The translations under genes and the position numbers were made by a program. 51,207 nt of DNA from a virus: IMG/VR virus record IMGVR_UViG_3300026907_000016. One strand, 5' to 3'. Each line of letters begins with the position of its first letter. Within the stretch, counting starts at the first letter, position 1. This document shows positions 25,444-47,636 of the stretch, piece after piece. The notes beneath the pieces are model-generated. The model had not been told where the DNA came from. It saw only the letters and a list, made by a program, of their open reading frames with translations, and did not search any database.

Positions 25444-26265
25444 GTGAATCGAATGAATGAGCAAGTGAAGCCCACGCCTCGGGCGTATCAGGCGAATGTG
25501 TTTTGGGATCAGCAAGACTGCGCAACGCTCAGCGCCCAGGTGTACCTGGCCAGCGATGCTGATTCGTACATCGACGCTCTGCACGCAGAGGCCGAGGCGC
25601 TGCGGGCTGAGAATTGGCGGCTGAATGCCGAGTTATCGGGCGCGCTGACTGGCATCGCAACAGAGTCTCAGGCGGCCGACCACTATCGGACTCAGCTTGA
25701 GGCGGCGCGGGGATTGCTGCGTGAGGTGGAATTGCTGGCCGAAGTCAGGGAGCACGGATACGCCGAGCGAAAACATGGCGACGTGCTCAACTACCGCTGC
25801 GCCAATGCTGTGGTGGAGATGCTGCCGCGTATCCAGGCCTTCCTCACTGCCACCCCGGCGCCGGAAGTGCGGCATGAACAGGCCACCCCGAAAGCCAGTA
25901 ACGGCGCTGGATGCAGCCATTTACAGGCAGAAGAACAGGCCGAGCAGGGAGAGCGGCAGGAGGCGGTGGCGTTCCGCTGCAAGCTCTCCATCCACAAAGA
26001 CTGGAAGTACATCGACCACCGTGCGCCGGACAGCTTTGAGCTGCGAGAGTGCGAGATTCAGGAGCTCTACACCACACCGCAGCCAGGCCCGGACTTGCGG
26101 GCGCTGGTGGAGGCGCTGGAGCATGCGCGCCTGTTCATCCGCAACGGCGTAGAGCTGGGCTACGTGAAGATGCCTGATGCCGATACGCCAGACCCCGCGC
26201 ACGAAACGCTGCCGAAAATCGAAGCAGCCCTGGCCGCACATCGACAGGCGCAACGCCAGGCCTGA
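25444..26265 (+). CDS. Hypothetical coiled-coil protein (273 aa; alternative ATG at 25453)
   Basis: ORF-track entry. The N-terminal third is helical (AEAEALRAENWRLNAELS). Confidence 0.55.
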   Translation: MNRMNEQVKPTPRAYQANVFWDQQDCATLSAQVYLASDADSYIDALHAEAEALRAENWRLNAELSGALTGIATESQAADHYRTQLEAARGLLREVELLAEVREHGYAERKHGDVLNYRCANAVVEMLPRIQAFLTATPAPEVRHEQATPKASNGAGCSHLQAEEQAEQGERQEAVAFRCKLSIHKDWKYIDHRAPDSFELRECEIQELYTTPQPGPDLRALVEALEHARLFIRNGVELGYVKMPDADTPDPAHETLPKIEAALAAHRQAQRQA

Positions 26266-26323
26266 TCCACCCCATCCCATCCCCTTTTCTATCTGCCCAC
26301 AACGTAGGGCGGGAGGATTTGCT

Positions 26324-27079
26324 GTGTCCGAGATAAAAGAATTTGGAGCTCGTATGAAAGATTCGATTCTGCGGCTGCTTGGCATCTGGAGCTTTGAGCC
26401 GGCCCAAAAGGGCTGGAAGGGCTACTGGTCTGCACGCGCCAGTTGGGGAGAGGTTGCTGGTCGCCCCGGGCTCGCATTCGGCTTTGTACTGAATGATCGC
26501 AGGTTCCTGCTCAACTTCTGCTTGGGCTGGCCTGTTTTCTACATCCGCCTGCGCTTCCTTGAGCGCTGGACGGGCGAGGCTCGGGATTGCATGGGCGACC
26601 GCTGGGGATTTTCTCTCGTAGACGGCCGTTCGATTCACCTCAATTGGCGCGACAAGACCAAGATCATCGACTTGCCATGGTCGTGGGATGTCGTCAGGAA
26701 AAGTGAGCTGCTTGCTGATGAGACCTGGGCTCACGACTTCTACGGAAAGGGTAAGCGCCTGACTTGGGAAGAGCGGAAGGCGCTCACTCTCTGGAAGCGG
26801 GAGCTGCCATACACCTATGTGCTGCGCTGCGGCGAGGTTCAGGAGCGCCTGGCGACAATCCGCGTTGAGGAGTGGGAATGCCGGCAGCTTTGGCTGAGGT
26901 GGTGCCCGTTGTTTGCTCGTGTGCGGCGCTCTATCTGGGTTGAGTTCAGCGGCGAGGTCGGCGAGGGCACCGGCTCTTGGAAGGGCGGCACGATGGGGTG
27001 CGGTTACGACATGAAGAAAGGCGAGTCGCCGGAAGACTGCCTTCGTCGCATGGAACGCGAACGGAAATTCAACCGGTAG
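26324..27079 (+). CDS. Conserved Trp-rich phage hypothetical protein (251 aa)
   Basis: GTG start after SD GGGAGGA, within ORF 26177..27079. Contains ...EVGEGTGSWKGGTMGCGYDMKKGESPEDCLRRMERERKF. Confidence 0.55.
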   Translation: MSEIKEFGARMKDSILRLLGIWSFEPAQKGWKGYWSARASWGEVAGRPGLAFGFVLNDRRFLLNFCLGWPVFYIRLRFLERWTGEARDCMGDRWGFSLVDGRSIHLNWRDKTKIIDLPWSWDVVRKSELLADETWAHDFYGKGKRLTWEERKALTLWKRELPYTYVLRCGEVQERLATIRVEEWECRQLWLRWCPLFARVRRSIWVEFSGEVGEGTGSWKGGTMGCGYDMKKGESPEDCLRRMERERKFNR

Positions 27080-32394: not shown

Positions 32395-35300
32395 AGTGTT
32401 ACCTCTCGGACATAGCCGCGCCCTACCACCTCAGAGAGCTGGTAGATTCGGAAAGTAATAGAAGCCTGCGCAGAGCCGAAGTCTGTCGTCTGCTGCGCCG
32501 CGGTGTAACTGAAGCTTGTGGTACTGGAAGAGATTGTGCGCACGACTGTTGAGCCGTTCATCACGTCTATCGCGTAGGCCTCGCTCGTCTCGCCTACCGG
32601 AGCTTGTACGCCATTCGTCCACCAGGTGCTGGAGAGACGCGAACGCCGGTAGAACGAACCCGTGAAGTTCTGCGAGCCGTCCCGGGCGCCGGTGACGTTG
32701 ACCACGCCTAGCGGCTCTAGATTCACGCCATCGTACGAGAACGTAACGTCTTCGGCGTCATCGATGCTTGCCCCAGAGGTAACACCTCGGTAGATGCGAT
32801 CCAGCCCAATGGACTGGATCGACATGCCGATGAATGCGTTGTCTGGGTCATCCAGCAGGATGAAGTAATCGCCGACCTGGTGCAGGCCAGTTGCCCACTC
32901 GGTCCCTTTGTCGCCGCGCACGAAACCAGACAGCGTGTAGGTGCCGTCTGCGTTTAGAGTGGCATCGCGGAACCGCACGATCTCCCACCGACCATCAACA
33001 CCATAAGCTGCGTAGTTGAAGCCAGTGAGCAACTGATCTTCGGTTATCGAATAAAATTCACCGGATATAACGGACAGCGTAAGCGTGGCCGAGCTGATCA
33101 GATAGCCTGCATGCGCGCTCAGCGAGTTCTGAGCGAGGCCGATAGTAGCTTTTCCCGTGAAGCCCTGAATATCTTCGAACGTTTGGCCACCATCTGTAGA
33201 TCGGACTGCAATGGCGCCAGGCCATCCTTCTGAATATCCGGTCATGACTCCAACAAACCCAGGACTTGTCTGACTAACCTCGTCGACCAGCGGGATATCC
33301 AGCGGAATGAACAAGGAAGGACCAGCAAGGCCTATGGTATCTGGCGGCGTTCCACCATCGCCGCCTACTGCTTGGCTCTTGTAAATAGCCGCATTTGCTG
33401 GCCTTGCCTTGCACTTGCGCACGAGCGTCGAGGCATCGTTGATCTCTGTCAGCCTGAGCGTATAGGTGCTTTCTGGGGTTGTTACCGTTACGACATCCGC
33501 GGGCTCAAGCGCCGCATAAATCGGCGGAATCTCCAGATCAAAAACAGTTCGTTCCAGCCAAGGCAGTTGCTGGAGAACGTCAGCGGCCTGCGCGGCTTCC
33601 GTGGCAGTAAGGACAATGGGAAGCTCTCTGTCTACGCGGTTCACTGCCTGTGTTCCAGGCCGATCTGCATACTCCTCGCCGCTGGCATACTCGCGGCTGG
33701 CATCCCAGAATTTAAGGTGCGTTGACGCCGGAAGCTGCGAATCCATCTCACGCGACTGCCGTAGCGTTTCTGATGCGGACTCGCCAGAAGCAGCGCCAAG
33801 GTCCTCATGGGGTATGGTCGCAACACTTGAGCCGCCGCGAGGAACGCACTGGATCAGATAGCCATGCTGGCGAACGTCAAAGGGATATGCCGCTTGAAGG
33901 TTCTCAATCGATGCTCTAACTGTTCCGCCCTGAACTCTGTAGCCGCGCACTCCATCGGTCATCAGGTCAGTTGAAACATCTGAATCATTGAGAAGTGATG
34001 TAAGCTTGCATTCTTCCTTAAATATATAGGAGATTGGAACTAGCTCGCGATTGACTGTTTCCAAAATATGGAAGTCATGTACATAGCCCCTCGTTGGGGA
34101 ATCGGTTACATAGCCGCCTCTACAAAACACACCATTAAACACACCAGCAGTGTAATTACCAGTGATGCTTGGAGATATGTCAGAGAATACAAACTCTTTT
34201 TCAACGCTTTGCAGATCTGCAGACAGCCTTTGAACTTTCACGCGCGTTGCTAAGTACAGGTAGACACCATCAAAATTCATCCATATTACCGATGTTTCTG
34301 ACGGAGTGGAAAAATCAGCATCAACAGAAATAGTATCAAGCAGGTTTAGTGAATAATCGTAAACATCAATCCCACCATCAAAAAGACAATATATCTTGCT
34401 GTCGTTTTCGCAAATTGATAGATAATCCTGAGAGGCAATTGAAATGTTACTTGGCGTAAAAGTTGAATATTCAACTCTGTGCATTCCAGAGACAGAATTC
34501 CACTCTCCAGAAAAAAACAAGTAGCCGCCGGCAACCACGAAGAATTCAACAATTCTATTTGTTATATCAATAGAAACCTTGTCTGGATAAATATAGAGAG
34601 AATCGCTAGGCAGAACGGAAGAAACACAAATCTTTCCTTGCGATGGGTTTGGAATTATTGTGCCGGTTGGCGACCATGCAGACTTCCTTGATACTACCCC
34701 AGCCTCTCTAGACTCGCTGATTACAGCAGAAGCGCTTGATGGATATGAGTTGCTCCAATTTGGGTCAAAAATTGAAGCTTCAGAATCAGACTGCAAATAT
34801 CCATACACAGCTCCAGGCAAGAAATTTCCAGGGCTTTCAATAAATCGATAATTTGAAGCCTCTGTGCTTTTCGAAATCTCCGTGCACACTTCAAATTTAA
34901 ACTGCGCCCCCTCAAGCGAGTTGTTATATTCAGTCAGCTCAAAATCATAGAAAACAATGTAAGGAGTGCCTCGATATGCGGGCGTATTCCCCACGCCTTT
35001 TTCTGCCTCAATTCGAGGGTCAGGGAGCTGGTCGTCGGAACCGTTATAAATCCTCCAGCCGCGTGCCGCTTTGTTGCTCGCAATGATCGTTTCGAGGTCA
35101 CTGCTGCCGACGTTGTAGATCAACTTGTCGCGGCACCAGATACGGCGGACGCCAGCGATTGGGCCTTCACCCAGGCCAATAGCGAAGGTGGCGAAGTAGG
35201 TATAGGTCTTCATGGTCGATCCGCCGCCACCACCCTTACCGCCCTGCTTCTTCTTGCGCACCACCTCCTTGAGCTTTCCGCCTTCCAGCCAAAACACATT

Positions 35301-43402: not shown

Positions 43403-43785
43403 TTGCGGGCCTGCGCGTAGAAGAAGCAAGCCACGCCGGCATAGTCGCCAGGATCGACCGACTGAACGGTGTAGGTCTGGCCGTCGAACAGCACCTTGTC
43501 AAGGGTCTTGGGCTCCGGCATGTCGTCGCCGTTCAGCAACACGGGAGAGATCATGAACCGCACGTCGCCAGCCTTCACCAGCGATCCGTCGATGTCCTCC
43601 AGGCGGTAGTTCTCGCGCAGGCCTGAGCCGGCATAGTCGGTGACCGTCTCGCTACTGCCGGTGTCTGGGTCATACTCGCCAGGCACAGTGCGGCGCAGGG
43701 TCAGTTCCAGCCCCTTACCACCCTGGCTGCGCGGTGCGAGCTGCCGCGCTGCGAGCGCCTTGGAGCGGTCGTAGATGTCGGTCAC
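43399..43785 (-). CDS. Head-closure / head-tail joining protein candidate
   Basis: 128 aa. Assigned from position in the connector block. Confidence 0.5.
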   Translation of the reverse strand: MTDIYDRSKALAARQLAPRSQGGKGLELTLRRTVPGEYDPDTGSSETVTDYAGSGLRENYRLEDIDGSLVKAGDVRFMISPVLLNGDDMPEPKTLDKVLFDGQTYTVQSVDPGDYAGVACFFYAQARK

Positions 43786-44276
43786 GAGCGAACCACCTTT
43801 CCACTGTATTGGCCGAGCGTGTACTTGGCAAAGAAGCCATCCGACTGGCGGCCGGCGACAGCTTTCGCCTTGTAGCCGGTGATTTCAGAAAACTCGGTAT
43901 CAATCGGGCCGACCTTTTCGCGCTTGACCGCGCCCTTGCGCTCTTCCGGCTTGTCCGTGTCGTCCTGATGAATCTCGCAGGCCAGGGCCATCTGCCCCAG
44001 CTTGATGTTGCGCGGCAGGGATGCGCCATCAGCAATGAAGCCGCGGCGGATCGTGTAGTAGCGCGGCCATGGCAAGCCCTGCTCGTCGCGAAGCTGGGCG
44101 CCAACCCACTGGAAGCGCCACATCTCGACGCCAGCACGGCGCAGCAGGGATTCCTGATCTGCTGTGTCGGCCGGCACGGTAAACCCGTAGTCGGTGGCGA
44201 ACTGGGCAAGCTCAGCGGCGGTAGCGAAAGAATCCGCGTCAGCCTTGCCGCTGCCGTCTTCGATTACGAGTGCCAT
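43782..44276 (-). CDS. Head-tail connector (adaptor) candidate
   Basis: 164 aa from MALVIEDGSGKADADSFATAAEL, a typical adaptor N-terminus. Confidence 0.55.
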   Translation of the reverse strand: MALVIEDGSGKADADSFATAAELAQFATDYGFTVPADTADQESLLRRAGVEMWRFQWVGAQLRDEQGLPWPRYYTIRRGFIADGASLPRNIKLGQMALACEIHQDDTDKPEERKGAVKREKVGPIDTEFSEITGYKAKAVAGRQSDGFFAKYTLGQYSGKVVRS

Positions 44277-44280
44277 GCGC

Positions 44281-45030
44281 TTACTCCACCACGACGAAAG
44301 AGGCTTGCTGATGCGCGGTGCGAGCCAGCGGCTCAACCTTGCGGCCATGCTTCGCGATCCACTCGCACAGCGCTTTCCACTCACCATCGCGCCAGTTCGG
44401 ATACCAGGACTCGGCGAAGTCGACCAGCTCGTCGAACACCAGCACGGTGCCGGCGACGATGCGGTCGTTCATGCCGCTAAGCACGTGCGCGGCCGATTCG
44501 TACAGGTCGCAATCGATGTGCACTAGGGCCAGCGGCTCTTCATGCTCGGCCAGCCACGCGGGGATGGTGTCGGCGAACCAGCCTGGCACCAAGTGAGCGC
44601 GGTTCGGCAGGTCAGTCGGCAGATCGGTTGCGAAATGACCTACAGGGTGCGGCTCACCTGTGCCGGTATCCCAGGCGCTCGGCAGGCCCTCGAACGAGTC
44701 GAAGCCGTAGGTCAGGCCTTTGCGCACGTCGATGATCGCGGCAAGCGAGTTGCCGGTGAATACGCCGAACTCCGCCGCAGTGCCGGCCGGCGCAGTGCGC
44801 GCGGCGTGCTGCAGATGCTCACGGCGGCTATCAATGACTGGCGCGGCCTTGATCGCGTCCAGCAGGGCGACTTCGGCGGCCGGTTGGGCAGCCTTCTTCA
44901 CCACTTCGGCGGCCGGTTGGGCAGCCTTCTTCACCACTTCGGCGGCCGGTTGGGCAGCAGGTGCTCCACCAGAAACCGCGCTGCTGTTCCGCTTCGAAAC
45001 TCTTGCCATGTCCATTGCCCCCAAGCGCAC
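44281..45030 (-). CDS. TylF/MycF-like class I SAM-dependent (O-)methyltransferase with an N-terminal AAQPAAEVVKK repeat
   Basis: AAEFGVFTGNS (SAM motif I) and LALVHIDCDLYESAAHVL (TylF hallmark). The start is one of three ATGs at 45030, 45015 or 45009. Confidence 0.75.
   Translation of the reverse strand: MRLGAMDMARVSKRNSSAVSGGAPAAQPAAEVVKKAAQPAAEVVKKAAQPAAEVALLDAIKAAPVIDSRREHLQHAARTAPAGTAAEFGVFTGNSLAAIIDVRKGLTYGFDSFEGLPSAWDTGTGEPHPVGHFATDLPTDLPNRAHLVPGWFADTIPAWLAEHEEPLALVHIDCDLYESAAHVLSGMNDRIVAGTVLVFDELVDFAESWYPNWRDGEWKALCEWIAKHGRKVEPLARTAHQQASFVVVE
44871..44959. repeat. 33-bp tandem repeat, about 2.7 copies
   Basis: acttcggcggccggttgggcagccttcttcacc occurs at 44871 and 44904, with a partial copy at 44937-44959. 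Confidence 0.9.
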
Positions 45031-45749
45031 CGGTAGAAGTGCGCGAGACGTTGATTGATGTCCGGCAATTGCTCGCCAGACAGCGATTCCCAGGCGGCGC
45101 CAGGGAAAGTCGAGATGACCGGCACGCCGGCCAGCAGGGCGTCATGCCCCATGTTGCTGTTGCCTGTTACGACCAGGCGCGCACCTGCCAGCGCATCGCC
45201 CATGTCGGGCGGTGCCAGCGGTAGTCCGTAGGTCAGTTCAGGCGCTTTCGGGTGCGGCCTGATTCGCGCATTGGGAAAGCGCTCGGCCTGCTGTAGCACC
45301 CATGTCGCCATTGCGTCCAGATCGCAGCCATGGGCGGCGTCTCCGGGCATTTGCGGGCAAATCAGGGCGTATCCATTAGGATCGCCTCCGCGCTCTTCTA
45401 CGCGCAGCCCAAGCGCATCAAACCGGCCAGGCGGGCAATCCCATGGCGGGAGCTGATTCAGCCCGCCAAGACCAACCTGCCAATGGCCTGTCTGAAAGTC
45501 GGCCTCGCCGTGCACGCGCCGGAGATAGCCATAGTCGACGACGACAACCGGCGTCCCGGCGTAGTCGGCGCGGATGATGTCGCCTTTGCCGCGAAGGCCG
45601 AAGACAGCGACAGCATCAAACGATTCGGTGCAGCCAGGCGCGTGGTCAGACAGCGACCGTAGCCTGGCTTGGTGTCCCGCTTCGACGAGGCCCCGGCGAA
45701 ACGCCAGAGCCCCCTCGAATCCATCACGGGCGTAGATGCCCCACTGCAT
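44931..45749 (-). CDS. Glycosyltransferase-like protein (GT-B / capsule-synthesis-like C-terminal half)
   Basis: 272 aa from MQWGIYARDGFEG. The ATG overlaps the capsid gene stop (TAATG). ALICPQMPGD...IRPHPKAP...ARLVVTGNSNMGHDALLAGVPVI. Confidence 0.5.
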   Translation of the reverse strand: MQWGIYARDGFEGALAFRRGLVEAGHQARLRSLSDHAPGCTESFDAVAVFGLRGKGDIIRADYAGTPVVVVDYGYLRRVHGEADFQTGHWQVGLGGLNQLPPWDCPPGRFDALGLRVEERGGDPNGYALICPQMPGDAAHGCDLDAMATWVLQQAERFPNARIRPHPKAPELTYGLPLAPPDMGDALAGARLVVTGNSNMGHDALLAGVPVISTFPGAAWESLSGEQLPDINQRLAHFYRCAWGQWTWQEFRSGTAARFLVEHLLPNRPPKW

Positions 45750-46741
45750 TAGCGGGACTGGATCACCACGCCGGCGAAGTCCTTGTAGGAGCCACGAACG
45801 GCGTCCCAGTTGGAACCGGTGCCCAGGGTGGCGTCGGACGGGTTGGCAGCGCCGTTGGCGATGTCCCACTTGAAGCCCTTCACGCCCAGGTTGTAGGCGA
45901 ACTCGCCTTGCATCCGGGTGATCAGGTTCTCCTTACCGGTGACGTTCTCGATCACCAGCTCTTCTTCCTCGGTGTTCTCGACGATGAGCGCATCGGCGGT
46001 CAGACCCAGGGCGAAGTAGTCGGTGGTCGCAGCCGAGCCGGAGCCAGCGGTGACAACCAGGGCATCGGAGTCGGTCACCAGAACCGGACGGTTCAGGGTA
46101 ACCGGGGTGCCGGTGGCCACGTTGAAGTTGGACACGCCGTCGATGTTGGCGGTGATCTGAGCTTGCACCAGGTCGTAGTACTGCTTGGAGTGCATGACCC
46201 AGCAGACGATCTGGCCAGCGGCGTCGCCGAACTTCGACAGACCGGTGACCAGGCCTGCGGTGTTCAGGGTGCCGTTGGTGGCGATGGTGTGCTTGACCGC
46301 CGACTGCGCGTTCAGAGCAGCACGACCGGCGCGCAGAGCGGAGTTCAGCATTTCCACCTGCATGGCCTTGGCGGCCATCTCGCCGAGCAGGAAGCTCATT
46401 TCGTCTTCAGCCAGACCAGCCATGATCTTGCGGAAGGCGTCCTTGGTCTGGTCAACCGGGCCGATCTTGCGGTTCAGCTTGACGCTGATCCATTCGTCCT
46501 GGGTCATGCCGAGGATGGTGGCGTCGGATACCGAGGTGGTATCGCGGCGGGTGATCAGGTTCGCCACGTTCTTGAAGAACGCCTGCTGCGAATAGTCACC
46601 GCGACGGCTCAGGGTGCTGAGGCTGATGGCGCCGGCCGAAGCGGCGTTGAATGCGTTGCTGTTCTGGGTCAGGGTCTCGACGATACCCGCCTGGAACTGG
46701 TCCTGATAGACCTTGAAGTCAGAAGCTTTACCTGCGGCCAT
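45749..46741 (-). CDS. Major capsid protein
   Basis: 330 aa. Immediately after the scaffold gene, with high GC3. Size and position are typical of a capsid protein. Confidence 0.8.
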   Translation of the reverse strand: MAAGKASDFKVYQDQFQAGIVETLTQNSNAFNAASAGAISLSTLSRRGDYSQQAFFKNVANLITRRDTTSVSDATILGMTQDEWISVKLNRKIGPVDQTKDAFRKIMAGLAEDEMSFLLGEMAAKAMQVEMLNSALRAGRAALNAQSAVKHTIATNGTLNTAGLVTGLSKFGDAAGQIVCWVMHSKQYYDLVQAQITANIDGVSNFNVATGTPVTLNRPVLVTDSDALVVTAGSGSAATTDYFALGLTADALIVENTEEEELVIENVTGKENLITRMQGEFAYNLGVKGFKWDIANGAANPSDATLGTGSNWDAVRGSYKDFAGVVIQSR

Positions 46742-46767: not shown

Positions 46768-47526
46768 TCAGTTAGGGAGCGCCAGATAGGCGTCTTTCCC
46801 GTGTTTGCTGATGAAAGCGGCCTTCTGCTTGGCAGACATCTGGCTGCGCGGCGTGCCTGGCCGTGCGTCGCTGCCGGTCGGACCAGAGCCACTGCCGTTG
46901 GCGTTGGCGGGGAACCAGTGCGGGCGCGTTTCTTTCATGTCCGCGAACCACTCCTTGAGGGTCAGCGGCTTACCGTCTTTGCCGAAGCGACCTTCTTTGG
47001 CGACGGGGTTGCCCTCGTCGTCCAGTTCGAAGTCGCGAGAAGCAGCCAACATGGCGTCCTCCATGGCGAACTTGTGCACACCGGCTTCGGATGCGGCACC
47101 GATCACTTCGCCCTTGAGCACGCGGGAAGCAAACTTCTCGGTGCGGGACTGGTGACGGGTGGCTTCCTGGCGAGCTGCCTCAAGGTCGCGGTCATAGCTG
47201 GACTTCATGCGTTCGGTGCGCTTGTTCAGCACTTCGTCTATCTTCCCGGCTGCGATGAGCTGGGCCTCTTCGTCGTCCGAAAAGCGCTGCAGGATGGTTT
47301 TCACTGCGTCGGGGTCGATACCTTCGAAGCTTTTCAGCTTCTCGCCCTGCTCTTTCAGCTTGCCGATCAGCTCGCCGTTTTTGGCCTTGAGGCCGCCAAC
47401 TGCTGCGCTCACCTGAGCATCGATCAGAGCTTGGATCTCGGGAGTGATCTCCGGCCCTTGGCCGCCACCACCGTTACCGCCGTCGCCGCCTTCTTCCTGC
47501 ATGAACAGCTGCTTGAGTTGGAACAT
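46768..47526 (-). CDS. Scaffolding protein
   Basis: 252 aa. A Gly-rich N-terminus followed by a charged coiled coil, upstream of the capsid gene. Confidence 0.7.
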   Translation of the reverse strand: MFQLKQLFMQEEGGDGGNGGGGQGPEITPEIQALIDAQVSAAVGGLKAKNGELIGKLKEQGEKLKSFEGIDPDAVKTILQRFSDDEEAQLIAAGKIDEVLNKRTERMKSSYDRDLEAARQEATRHQSRTEKFASRVLKGEVIGAASEAGVHKFAMEDAMLAASRDFELDDEGNPVAKEGRFGKDGKPLTLKEWFADMKETRPHWFPANANGSGSGPTGSDARPGTPRSQMSAKQKAAFISKHGKDAYLALPN

Positions 47527-47564: not shown

Positions 47565-47589
47565 AAAAAAGCCCCGGCTTTGCCGAGGC
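47565..47589 (-). terminator. Intrinsic terminator (second of a tandem pair) upstream of the scaffold gene
   Basis: Minus strand reads GCCTCGGCaaaGCCGGGGCTTTTTTAT. Confidence 0.6.
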
Positions 47590-47636
47590 TGGAAATTTGT
47601 GCTCTGTGTGTCCCTTGTCCCGGGACAGCGGACATG

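Follow-up and report, generated by a model that had tools for sequence, protein, structure and literature searches.

The retaining β-Kdo glycosyltransferases KpsC and KpsS (GT107), the N-terminal module of WbbB (GT99) and KrkA (GT140) have a two-Rossmann GT-B architecture, and their families are defined by two motifs: QXXXD, which holds the nucleophilic Asp, and (K/R)XHP, which is involved in CMP binding (PMC12887879, PMC10148158; the second motif is used here as defined in PMC12887879). The transferase encoded behind the major capsid gene of the phage described here shares this architecture, with both motifs likewise in the C-terminal domain. It may also share with KpsC, whose general base is Glu66, an acidic residue of the N-terminal domain within a D/E-x-G-aromatic motif. 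The phage protein differs, however, from the retaining β-Kdo transferases in that it is only 9-16% identical to them, about 50-120 residues shorter and devoid of a helical insertion, membrane anchor or coiled coil. Moreover, it is a single-module enzyme encoded inside a head operon, its own sequence falls below every Pfam threshold, and its acceptor is probably not a lipid-linked glycan. The product of the adjoining gene has the class I SAM fold and the metal-binding D-x-D-x-Y-E-S segment of MycF, NovP, CalS11 and SpnH. Its identity to these enzymes is 20-26%, and it differs from them by a shorter lid region, by a disordered, repeat-encoded N-terminal extension, and in that its gene belongs to a phage head operon and not to an antibiotic gene cluster.

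Two phage systems offer a comparison for the pair as a whole. In mycobacteriophages Che8, Corndog and Myrna, phage-encoded transferases, the genes of which adjoin an O-methyltransferase gene, are reported to glycosylate subunits of the capsid and the tail tube (as summarised in PMC11600133 and PMC12619734). The mycobacteriophage system is late and self-directed, and it resembles the present locus in that a phage-encoded transferase is combined with an O-methyltransferase. However, the transferases of the two systems have no detectable sequence relationship: tblastn of our transferase against 50,697 phage records found no close homologue and a single weak match, 25% identical, from an uncultured phage. 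In addition, the transferase here is of another class, presumably with other sugars and in Gram-negative hosts, and neither capsid nor tube carries a C-terminal acceptor tail. The second comparison is with serotype-converting prophages, which also carry sugar-modifying enzymes in Gram-negative hosts. Their gtr-type transferases are membrane proteins, usually encoded close to the attachment site, and are expressed in the lysogen from promoters of their own, whereas the pair studied here consists of soluble proteins encoded between the capsid and adaptor genes, with no promoter-like site that belongs to the pair itself. The literature that we searched on Kdo transferases, macrocin methyltransferases and glycosylated Pseudomonas prophage capsids contained nothing on a capsid-linked transferase/methyltransferase module.

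Layout of the locus

The window, that is, the whole stretch of 51,207 nucleotides that was analysed, belongs to a temperate siphovirus, a Pseudomonas-type prophage with its closest relatives in Pseudomonas/Ectopseudomonas genomes. The features considered are, in the order of transcription, with the repeat last:

46768..47526, minus strand: head scaffolding protein gene, upstream and in the same late transcription unit (phrog_206, 4.1e-45)
45749..46741, minus strand: major capsid protein gene, 330 aa, SPP1 gp13-like HK97 fold (Pfam PF20036, Gp13-like, 1.6e-93; phrog_247, 2.4e-46)
44931..45749, minus strand: predicted glycosyltransferase gene, 272 aa, compact soluble GT-B (homologues, profile, AlphaFold model)
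44281..45015, minus strand: predicted TylF-family sugar O-methyltransferase gene (Pfam, PHROG and PDB sequence matches, AlphaFold/Foldseek)
43782..44276, minus strand: head-tail adaptor (Ad1) gene, which bounds the accessory slot on its downstream side (Pfam DnaT_2, 3.9e-37; phrog_477, 7.1e-35)
44870..44958, no strand assigned: 33-nt tandem repeat, 2.7 copies, inside the transferase/methyltransferase overlap (Tandem Repeats Finder)

The capsid, transferase, methyltransferase and adaptor genes are thus on the minus strand throughout. The initial annotation had placed an enzyme pair between the capsid and the head-tail connector genes, and we find the same order, with the Gp13-like capsid gene upstream and the Ad1 adaptor gene downstream; the coordinates, the TAATG junction and all the motifs that it quoted are present in the sequence as well. 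At the junction (TAATG, 45747-45751), the TAA stop codon of the capsid gene and the ATG of the transferase gene share one base. No promoter-like or terminator-like site was found between the capsid and adaptor genes, nor any terminator-like site in the interval from the scaffold gene to the adaptor gene, and the sole terminator-like site on the minus strand (47570-47590) lies upstream of the scaffold gene. Read from the sequence, the TAATG overlap would imply that the capsid and transferase genes are co-transcribed, and it is possible that their translation is coupled. It does not imply capsid-level amounts of the transferase, and the earlier suggestion of capsid-stoichiometric expression does not follow.

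The transferase and the methyltransferase

The transferase ORF (44931..45749) contains the segments ALICPQMPGD, IRPHPKAP and ARLVVTGNSNMGHDALLAGVPVI. The start at 45749 is supported by the N-terminal sequence, MQWGIY..., which matches the beginning of 48 homologues in the alignment. Since the transferase itself gave no match in Pfam (none at E ≤ 1), PHROGs or NCBIfam, its assignment to the Kdo transferases was made through homologues, a profile and the fold. PF05159 was matched by 25 of 49 homologues at E ≤ 0.1 (best E 6.4e-7), and one distant member of the family exceeded the PF05159 cut-off (41.7 bits versus 20). When a transferase profile was compared with the PDB, KpsC (E 0.046) and WbbB (E 0.063) were detected with both motifs aligned; at E ~0.05, the sequence evidence that connects it with Kdo transferases of solved structure is marginal. 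An AlphaFold model of the transferase (pLDDT 95) was then compared with the PDB using Foldseek, and ranks 1-18 were all WbbB, KpsC or KrkA, with a probability of 1.00, E values of 1.5e-7 to 2.6e-5, and TM-scores of 0.39-0.56 that are low because the insertion domain is missing in the phage protein. The C-terminal half of the first gene product had originally been described as resembling a GT-B or capsule-synthesis-type transferase, with profile searches and structure prediction proposed as a check. Both point to a KpsC/WbbB/KrkA-like protein and not to an unrelated fold, and the description, which corresponds to the PF05159 kind, can be sharpened to the retaining β-Kdo type, of which both defining motifs are kept.

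The QXXXD motif is represented by Q133-M-P-G-D137, in which D137 is the predicted nucleophile; Q133 and D137 align with Q156 and D160 of KpsC. The (K/R)XHP motif, with a predicted role in CMP binding, corresponds to R164-P-H166-P167, and its HP aligns with that of KpsC and WbbB. None of the residues Q133, D137, R164, H166 and P167 varies among 49 sequences with identities as low as 43%. D72, in D-Y-G-Y, is also invariant and is found opposite Glu66 of KpsC, but in a segment of the alignment that is below threshold (-2.1 bits); we regard it as a candidate for the general base. The protein appears soluble (GRAVY -0.26), with no hydrophobic segment, membrane anchor or basic tail. Judged from its sequence and model, the transferase is a GT-B enzyme that resembles the retaining β-Kdo transferases, with an activity that is predicted.

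The longest methyltransferase ORF (44281..45030) starts at GTG 45030 and contains AAEFGVFTGNS and LVHIDCDLYES, and the start chosen by the gene caller is GTG 44934. An ATG at the equivalent position recurs in four other lineages, and the most likely start is ATG 45009 or 45015. This would give a protein of 242-244 aa and, therefore, an overlap of about 80 nt with the 3' end of the transferase gene. The 33-nt repeat within the overlap (Tandem Repeats Finder score 178, 100% matches) encodes the AAQPAAEVVKK units of the disordered N-terminus of the methyltransferase and carries the TGA stop codon of the transferase gene; in relatives whose transferase protein is 96% identical, the repeat is shorter by one unit. 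Relative to the transferase, the methyltransferase is read in the -1 frame. A -1 frameshift fusion of both enzymes was considered: no canonical slippery heptamer was seen in the overlap, read by eye, and this arrangement was rejected because the conserved methyltransferase ATG accounts for the layout.

The methyltransferase scored above the Pfam cut-offs for TylF (43 bits versus 23, E 4.4e-11) and Methyltransf_24 (41.1 bits versus 26.3, E 3.7e-10), and matched phrog_6608 (1.8e-30). Its sequence matches in the PDB were CalS11, NovP and MycF, and H-I-D-C-D-L-Y-E-S aligns with F-D-L-D-L-Y-E-P of CalS11, an acidic metal-binding segment. In the AlphaFold model (pLDDT 77.5), residues 1-39, counted from ATG 45009, are below 50, and the N-terminal 39-41 residues or so are disordered. 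MycF, NovP, CalS11 and SpnH occupied Foldseek ranks 1-20, and the best matches in sequence as well as in fold were exclusively sugar O-methyltransferases. The initial reading of a TylF/MycF-type sugar O-methyltransferase with a class I SAM site is borne out by the Pfam scores and by these structures. We conclude, from sequence and model, that the second gene encodes a predicted TylF-family, metal-dependent sugar O-methyltransferase.

Conservation of the position behind the capsid gene

Loci were counted when the transferase was at least 38% identical and upstream DNA was present (n=67). All 67 have a gp13-like capsid gene upstream of the transferase gene, within about 350 nt in all but one, and it persists even where the capsid protein is merely 28-32% identical. 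Most loci have 0 to about 150 nt between the capsid and transferase genes; the distance rises to about 350 nt in four loci and to about 900 nt in one, and the junction is often a one-base overlap. Because the gap varies from 0 to about 900 nt, coupling is not a conserved feature. The adaptor gene directly follows the transferase gene in at least 20 related loci, as detected by tblastn, which missed divergent adaptors in others. Methyltransferases of two families, the TylF type and the Methyltransf_23/11 type, are also found after the transferase and differ by lineage. A fusion of the transferase with the HeH domain of a small protein, the usual occupant of the post-capsid slot, is seen in some homologues. 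This slot is filled by other, unrelated accessory genes in relatives that have no transferase, and the position of the transferase may therefore reflect, in part, a permissive site. On the capsid tree, the presence of the transferase requires at least 4-5 gains or losses, the divergence of the capsid and that of the transferase are uncoupled, and a capsid protein with 84% identity exists without a transferase gene.

The transferase family comprises 184 close homologues and 2286 clusters at E ≤ 1e-10. Both genes evolve under purifying selection (dN/dS: transferase, 0.14-0.26; methyltransferase, 0.06-0.12). Matches to the transferase in genomes numbered 17, all in lineages that we take to be Gram-negative. 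No additional domain was recognised in the longer members of the family. Many homologues have a linker and a short polybasic C-terminal tail, and some end in HeH/SAP/Rho_N or AT-hook-like DNA-binding tails. The phage clusters in which more distant homologues (≤35% identity) occur also contain heptosyltransferase-like, sulfotransferase and sialyltransferase-like genes.

Possible targets of the enzyme pair

Five phage contigs with a transferase homologue were searched for a CMP-sugar synthetase gene, and none was found; the donor must therefore be supplied by the host. The capsid alignment has no column that tracks the presence of the transferase (≥85% versus ≤25%), and none of the 21 structural proteins of the window has a Ser/Thr/Pro-rich acceptor tail. 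We tentatively favour glycosylation of the virion with host CMP-Kdo as the best explanation, the pair being best explained as a minimal unit for adding and tailoring a glycan within the late head operon. The donor (Kdo), the sequence in which the two reactions occur and the acceptor are inferred in the scheme that we propose. In it, the transferase, as a compact and soluble enzyme related to the retaining β-Kdo glycosyltransferases, would bind a host-supplied CMP-activated ulosonic acid, most likely CMP-Kdo. The sugar would pass to Asp137, forming a covalent intermediate, and from there to an acceptor bound at the N-terminal domain. The added sugar, or its neighbour, would then be O-methylated by the TylF-type enzyme with SAM and a divalent metal. 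The acceptor would most likely be a co-produced virion protein, with the major capsid protein as the first candidate, and the released particles would carry a small acidic, methylated sugar.

Decoration of the virion with a methylated glycan was already put forward in the initial annotation. It is plausible because the position in the head module is strictly conserved and a separate promoter is absent, and it fits with a transferase that, unlike KpsC, has no membrane anchor. Against it are the absence of an acceptor tail, motif or capsid signature in the proteins searched, the 84% identical capsid without the gene, the sharing of the accessory slot and the uncoupled divergence of capsid and transferase, as well as the marginal sequence matches to known Kdo transferases, with TM-scores of only about 0.5, and the fact that glycans or glycolipids, and not proteins, are the targets of all characterised relatives. 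The narrower proposal that phages of Gram-negative bacteria attach Kdo, here O-methylated, directly to the capsid protein using host CMP-Kdo seems rather doubtful. To our knowledge, Kdo attached to a protein has never been described.

That the pair instead modifies an envelope glycan of the host late in infection seems unlikely. O-antigen, common antigen or capsule could, for example, be capped with β-Kdo and methyl groups, which are known chain terminators, and polymer growth would be stopped, release eased, or adsorption of the progeny to debris prevented. The characterised relatives KpsC, KpsS, WbbB and KrkA all act on lipid-linked glycans, the polybasic tails of many homologues recall the basic amphipathic anchor of KpsC, and the gene neighbours of the homologues at or below 35% identity, being heptosyltransferase-like, sulfotransferase and sialyltransferase-like, also speak for such a role. 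However, since the pair forms part of the late head operon and lacks a promoter-like site, it should be silent in the lysogen, whereas classical serotype-converting genes are expressed there. The transferase of the window has no anchor or basic tail, little time would be left before lysis for a new surface polymer to matter, and the strict pairing with one capsid family would be left unexplained. We also consider it improbable that the enzymes act on some other late soluble target, with the place behind the capsid gene being no more than a permissive site for accessory genes. Such a target could be phage DNA that is yet to be packaged, the small DNA-binding HeH protein from the head module, some other protein of phage or host origin, or a small molecule. 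The DNA-binding tails (HeH/SAP/Rho_N or AT-hook-like) of some homologues speak for this reading, and DNA-glycosylating GT-B enzymes are known from phages; the unrelated accessory genes that occupy the slot in transferase-free relatives and the 4-5 or more gains or losses that the capsid tree requires are in line with a permissive site. DNA hypermodification was rejected, as no TET- or hydroxymethylase-like gene was found among the ten early ORFs scanned, and the HeH tail, which the transferase of the window does not have, is explained by fusion with a resident neighbour gene. The sugar O-methyltransferase partner, moreover, fits a glycan product. Finally, the transferase-like protein could be a non-enzymatic accessory of the head, such as a decoration or assembly factor. 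Genes for decoration or head completion are often found at this position, and translational coupling between the transferase and capsid genes is frequent, but both catalytic motifs are fully invariant in the 49 sequences (down to 43% identity), a tailoring methyltransferase accompanies the transferase in several lineages, and the dN/dS of 0.14-0.26 also stands against a purely structural role, which we regard as highly improbable.

The comparison presented here suggests that the transferase, a member of a large, uncharacterised family, is a stripped-down retaining Kdo transferase, which would therefore provide a small soluble model for an unusual covalent mechanism. The locus is also a convenient test case, with one transferase, one methyltransferase and cultured lysogens that carry 96% identical genes. 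If the virion is the target, glycosylated phage particles would be found not only among actinobacteriophages but also among temperate phages of Pseudomonas, Alcaligenaceae and Xanthomonadales, with a different class of enzyme and an unexpected sugar, and this would bear on the recognition of phages during therapy. Attachment of Kdo to the capsid protein, if true, would be the first case of protein-linked Kdo and the first virion glycosylation system described among proteobacterial phages, and it would give the particles an acidic coat resembling the LPS core that could alter their adsorption, their stability or the way in which defences and antibodies recognise them.

Layout of the late genes

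A siphovirus prophage's late operon fills the right third of the window. It runs on the minus strand in the order terminase, portal, Mu-F-like head protein, scaffold, capsid, transferase, methyltransferase, head-tail adaptor Ad1, neck, tube, tape-measure and distal tail. The features discussed here are the following.

46768..47526 (-), scaffold gene
45749..46741 (-), major capsid protein gene (Pfam Gp13-like, E 1.6e-93)
44931..45749 (-), transferase gene, 272 aa
44281..45030 (-), methyltransferase gene, longest ORF
43782..44276 (-), head-tail adaptor Ad1 gene
44870..44958, perfect 33-nt tandem repeat, 2.7 copies, within the transferase/methyltransferase overlap

The initial annotation placed the transferase start on the capsid stop codon, and this holds: the ATG of the one and the TAA of the other have an A in common, and the transferase N-terminus is kept among aligned homologues. 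The stretch from the capsid gene to the adaptor gene showed no promoter-like or terminator-like sites; the single terminator-like site on the minus strand sits upstream of the scaffold gene. Judging from the sequence, the methyltransferase gene most likely overlaps the final ~27 transferase codons, because an ATG matching that at 45009/45015 is present in four other lineages and a G-run lies 8 nt ahead of the ATG at 45009. At 44931-45015 these codons, including a conserved Q-W-T motif, double as the methyltransferase N-terminus in a second frame. The seeming conservation of that N-terminus across lineages probably stems from constraint on the transferase frame. The TGA stop of the transferase falls within the 33-nt repeat, which also codes for a disordered, Ala/Pro/Glu/Lys-rich methyltransferase N-terminus (pLDDT about 30 in the predicted structure); relatives with a 96% identical transferase have one unit fewer. 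Against close relatives, dN/dS was 0.14-0.26 for the transferase, 0.06-0.12 for the methyltransferase and 0.03-0.13 for the capsid gene.

Elsewhere in the window, a 300-aa ORF of the early region (26177-27079, plus strand) matches the CBASS inhibitor Acb3 (PF25187, E 1.1e-44) and is, on this sequence match, a candidate anti-defence gene. At 34001-35000, within a 1048-aa host-specificity gene, GC drops to 0.41, versus about 0.6 elsewhere.

Predicted activities of the two enzymes

The transferase has no direct match in Pfam, PHROGs or NCBIfam, and nearly all of its 184 close homologues are without a name. When a profile was run against 1.84 billion representatives, 4175 clusters scored E<=0.001, of which 2286 reached E<=1e-10. 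Nevertheless, its reading as a capsule-synthesis-type enzyme was borne out by matches among homologues and by fold. PF05159 (capsule polysaccharide biosynthesis, the KpsC/KpsS family of Pfam) was matched by 25 of the 49 aligned homologues (best E 6.4e-7), and one distant family member scores above its cut-off. The best solved structures for the family profile were KpsC (E 0.046) and WbbB (E 0.063), both with marginal scores; both catalytic motifs align in these matches. The AlphaFold model (pLDDT 95, pTM 0.90) had WbbB, KpsC or KrkA as all 18 of its best PDB fold matches (probability 1.00, E 1.5e-7 to 2.6e-5), with TM-scores of only around 0.5, since the insertions of these enzymes are missing from the phage protein. 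The best predicted viral structures (TM up to 0.83) include Tetraselmis virus 1 proteins named capsule polysaccharide biosynthesis protein and a protein of the Caulobacter phage CcrColossus. Two motifs characterise retaining beta-Kdo transferases (PMC12887879, PMC10148158): an invariant QXXXD, in which the Asp becomes covalently linked to Kdo, and (K/R)XHP, which is responsible for CMP binding. The phage counterparts are Q133-M-P-G-D137 and R164-P-H166-P167; invariant D72 aligns with the KpsC general base Glu66, in a weak segment of the alignment. The protein is thus very likely a retaining transferase of the Kdo-transferase kind that uses a CMP-ulosonic acid.

The assignment of the second gene to the TylF type also stood. 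It exceeds the Pfam cut-offs for TylF and Methyltransf_24, its best solved sequence relatives are CalS11, NovP and MycF, and the first 20 matches of the fold search are all to sugar-acting O-methyltransferases (MycF, NovP, CalS11 and SpnH). We predict with high confidence that it encodes a sugar O-methyltransferase, and regard the enzyme assignments for both genes as solid.

Pairing with the capsid gene

Our comparison covered 17 bacterial-genome loci and 80 viral-contig loci. The hosts include Pseudomonas/Ectopseudomonas, Alcaligenaceae and Xanthomonadales, and other Gram-negative lineages for distant members. Among the 69 loci with transferase identity >=38%, two lacked upstream DNA and were left out; in 67/67 of the others a gp13-like capsid gene lies upstream (by tblastn in 63, by PHROG in four), with a gap of 0-150 nt in 62, about 350 nt in four and 900 nt in one. 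The pairing persists at capsid identities to the window's of only 28-32%, and the two divergences are uncorrelated (capsid 91% with transferase 45%; capsid 28% with transferase 49%). At least 20 loci have the adaptor gene directly after the transferase. Other loci have a methyltransferase gene between the two: a TylF-type enzyme in the clade of the window and in a few more, and an enzyme of Methyltransf_23/11 type, unrelated to the first, in L004, L026, L027, L054 and L062.

One viral contig, with a capsid 91% identical to the window's, has ~900 nt with a 232-aa ORF inserted between capsid gene and transferase (L051:3098-4000); the junction itself therefore tolerates insertions. On L007, a 14.5-kb contig attributed to an Alteromonadales genome (Bowmanella yangjiangensis), the capsid, transferase and methyltransferase genes show 98%, 96% and 88% identity to those of the window, as close as in the Pseudomonas and Ectopseudomonas prophages L008/L009. 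This could reflect assembly contamination or an unusually wide host distribution.

Proposed donor and acceptor

CMP-Kdo is, to our knowledge, made by every Gram-negative host. The transferase family was seen only in lineages that are, as far as we know, Gram-negative (17 bacterial-genome loci), and five homologue-bearing phage contigs yielded no CMP-sugar synthetase gene. For these reasons we consider CMP-Kdo a somewhat probable donor.

Literature searches found no paper on this capsid-adjacent module, and its linkage to the capsid has limits. A gp13-like capsid gene occurs in 27 of 401 sampled Pseudomonadaceae genomes and the transferase in only three of the 27, all with capsids >=88% identical to the window's. 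Its presence requires at least 4-5 changes on the capsid tree, one capsid pair 84% identical differs in it, and no alignment column separated transferase-linked from transferase-free capsids. In the rest of the 27 the post-capsid slot is occupied by small phrog_2101/phrog_1539 proteins (labelled Arc-like repressor or unlabelled in PHROGs), most with a C-terminal HeH domain, which is of DNA-binding type. Examples from relatives without a transferase, with the separate HeH gene of L004, are:

L109:2479-2802, small HeH-type slot protein
L110:2495-2881, small HeH-type slot protein
L114:2447-3094, small HeH-type slot protein
L004:5820-6119, separate HeH gene

The same domain (HeH/SAP) ends some transferase homologues; this, and the L004 gene, can be explained because the slot normally holds HeH proteins. 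A different soluble acceptor, for example DNA or the HeH protein, seems unlikely. We would give similarly little credence to a role in modifying a host envelope glycan late in infection: we found no hydrophobic or amphipathic anchor in the window's transferase, whereas KpsC enzymes all have such an anchor. Some homologues at <=35% identity likewise follow a capsid gene; others belong to glycan clusters of phages, together with heptosyltransferase-like, sulfotransferase, sialyltransferase-like and radical-SAM genes. A non-enzymatic structural role is very improbable; the motif residues Q133, D137, R164, H166 and P167 are invariant among the 49 aligned homologues.

In mycobacteriophages, Ser/Thr/Pro-rich tails are targets of glycosylation, and no such tail was found in the window's structural proteins. 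Mycobacteriophage transferases adjoin an O-methyltransferase in virion glycosylation (PMC11600133, PMC12619734). With this precedent, and because the head-module position is invariant, the genes are predicted to be co-transcribed late, the transferase is soluble and in some homologues fused to the resident head-module protein, and two methyltransferase families have been recruited, we tentatively favour a virion protein as the acceptor, for which the capsid protein would be the first candidate.
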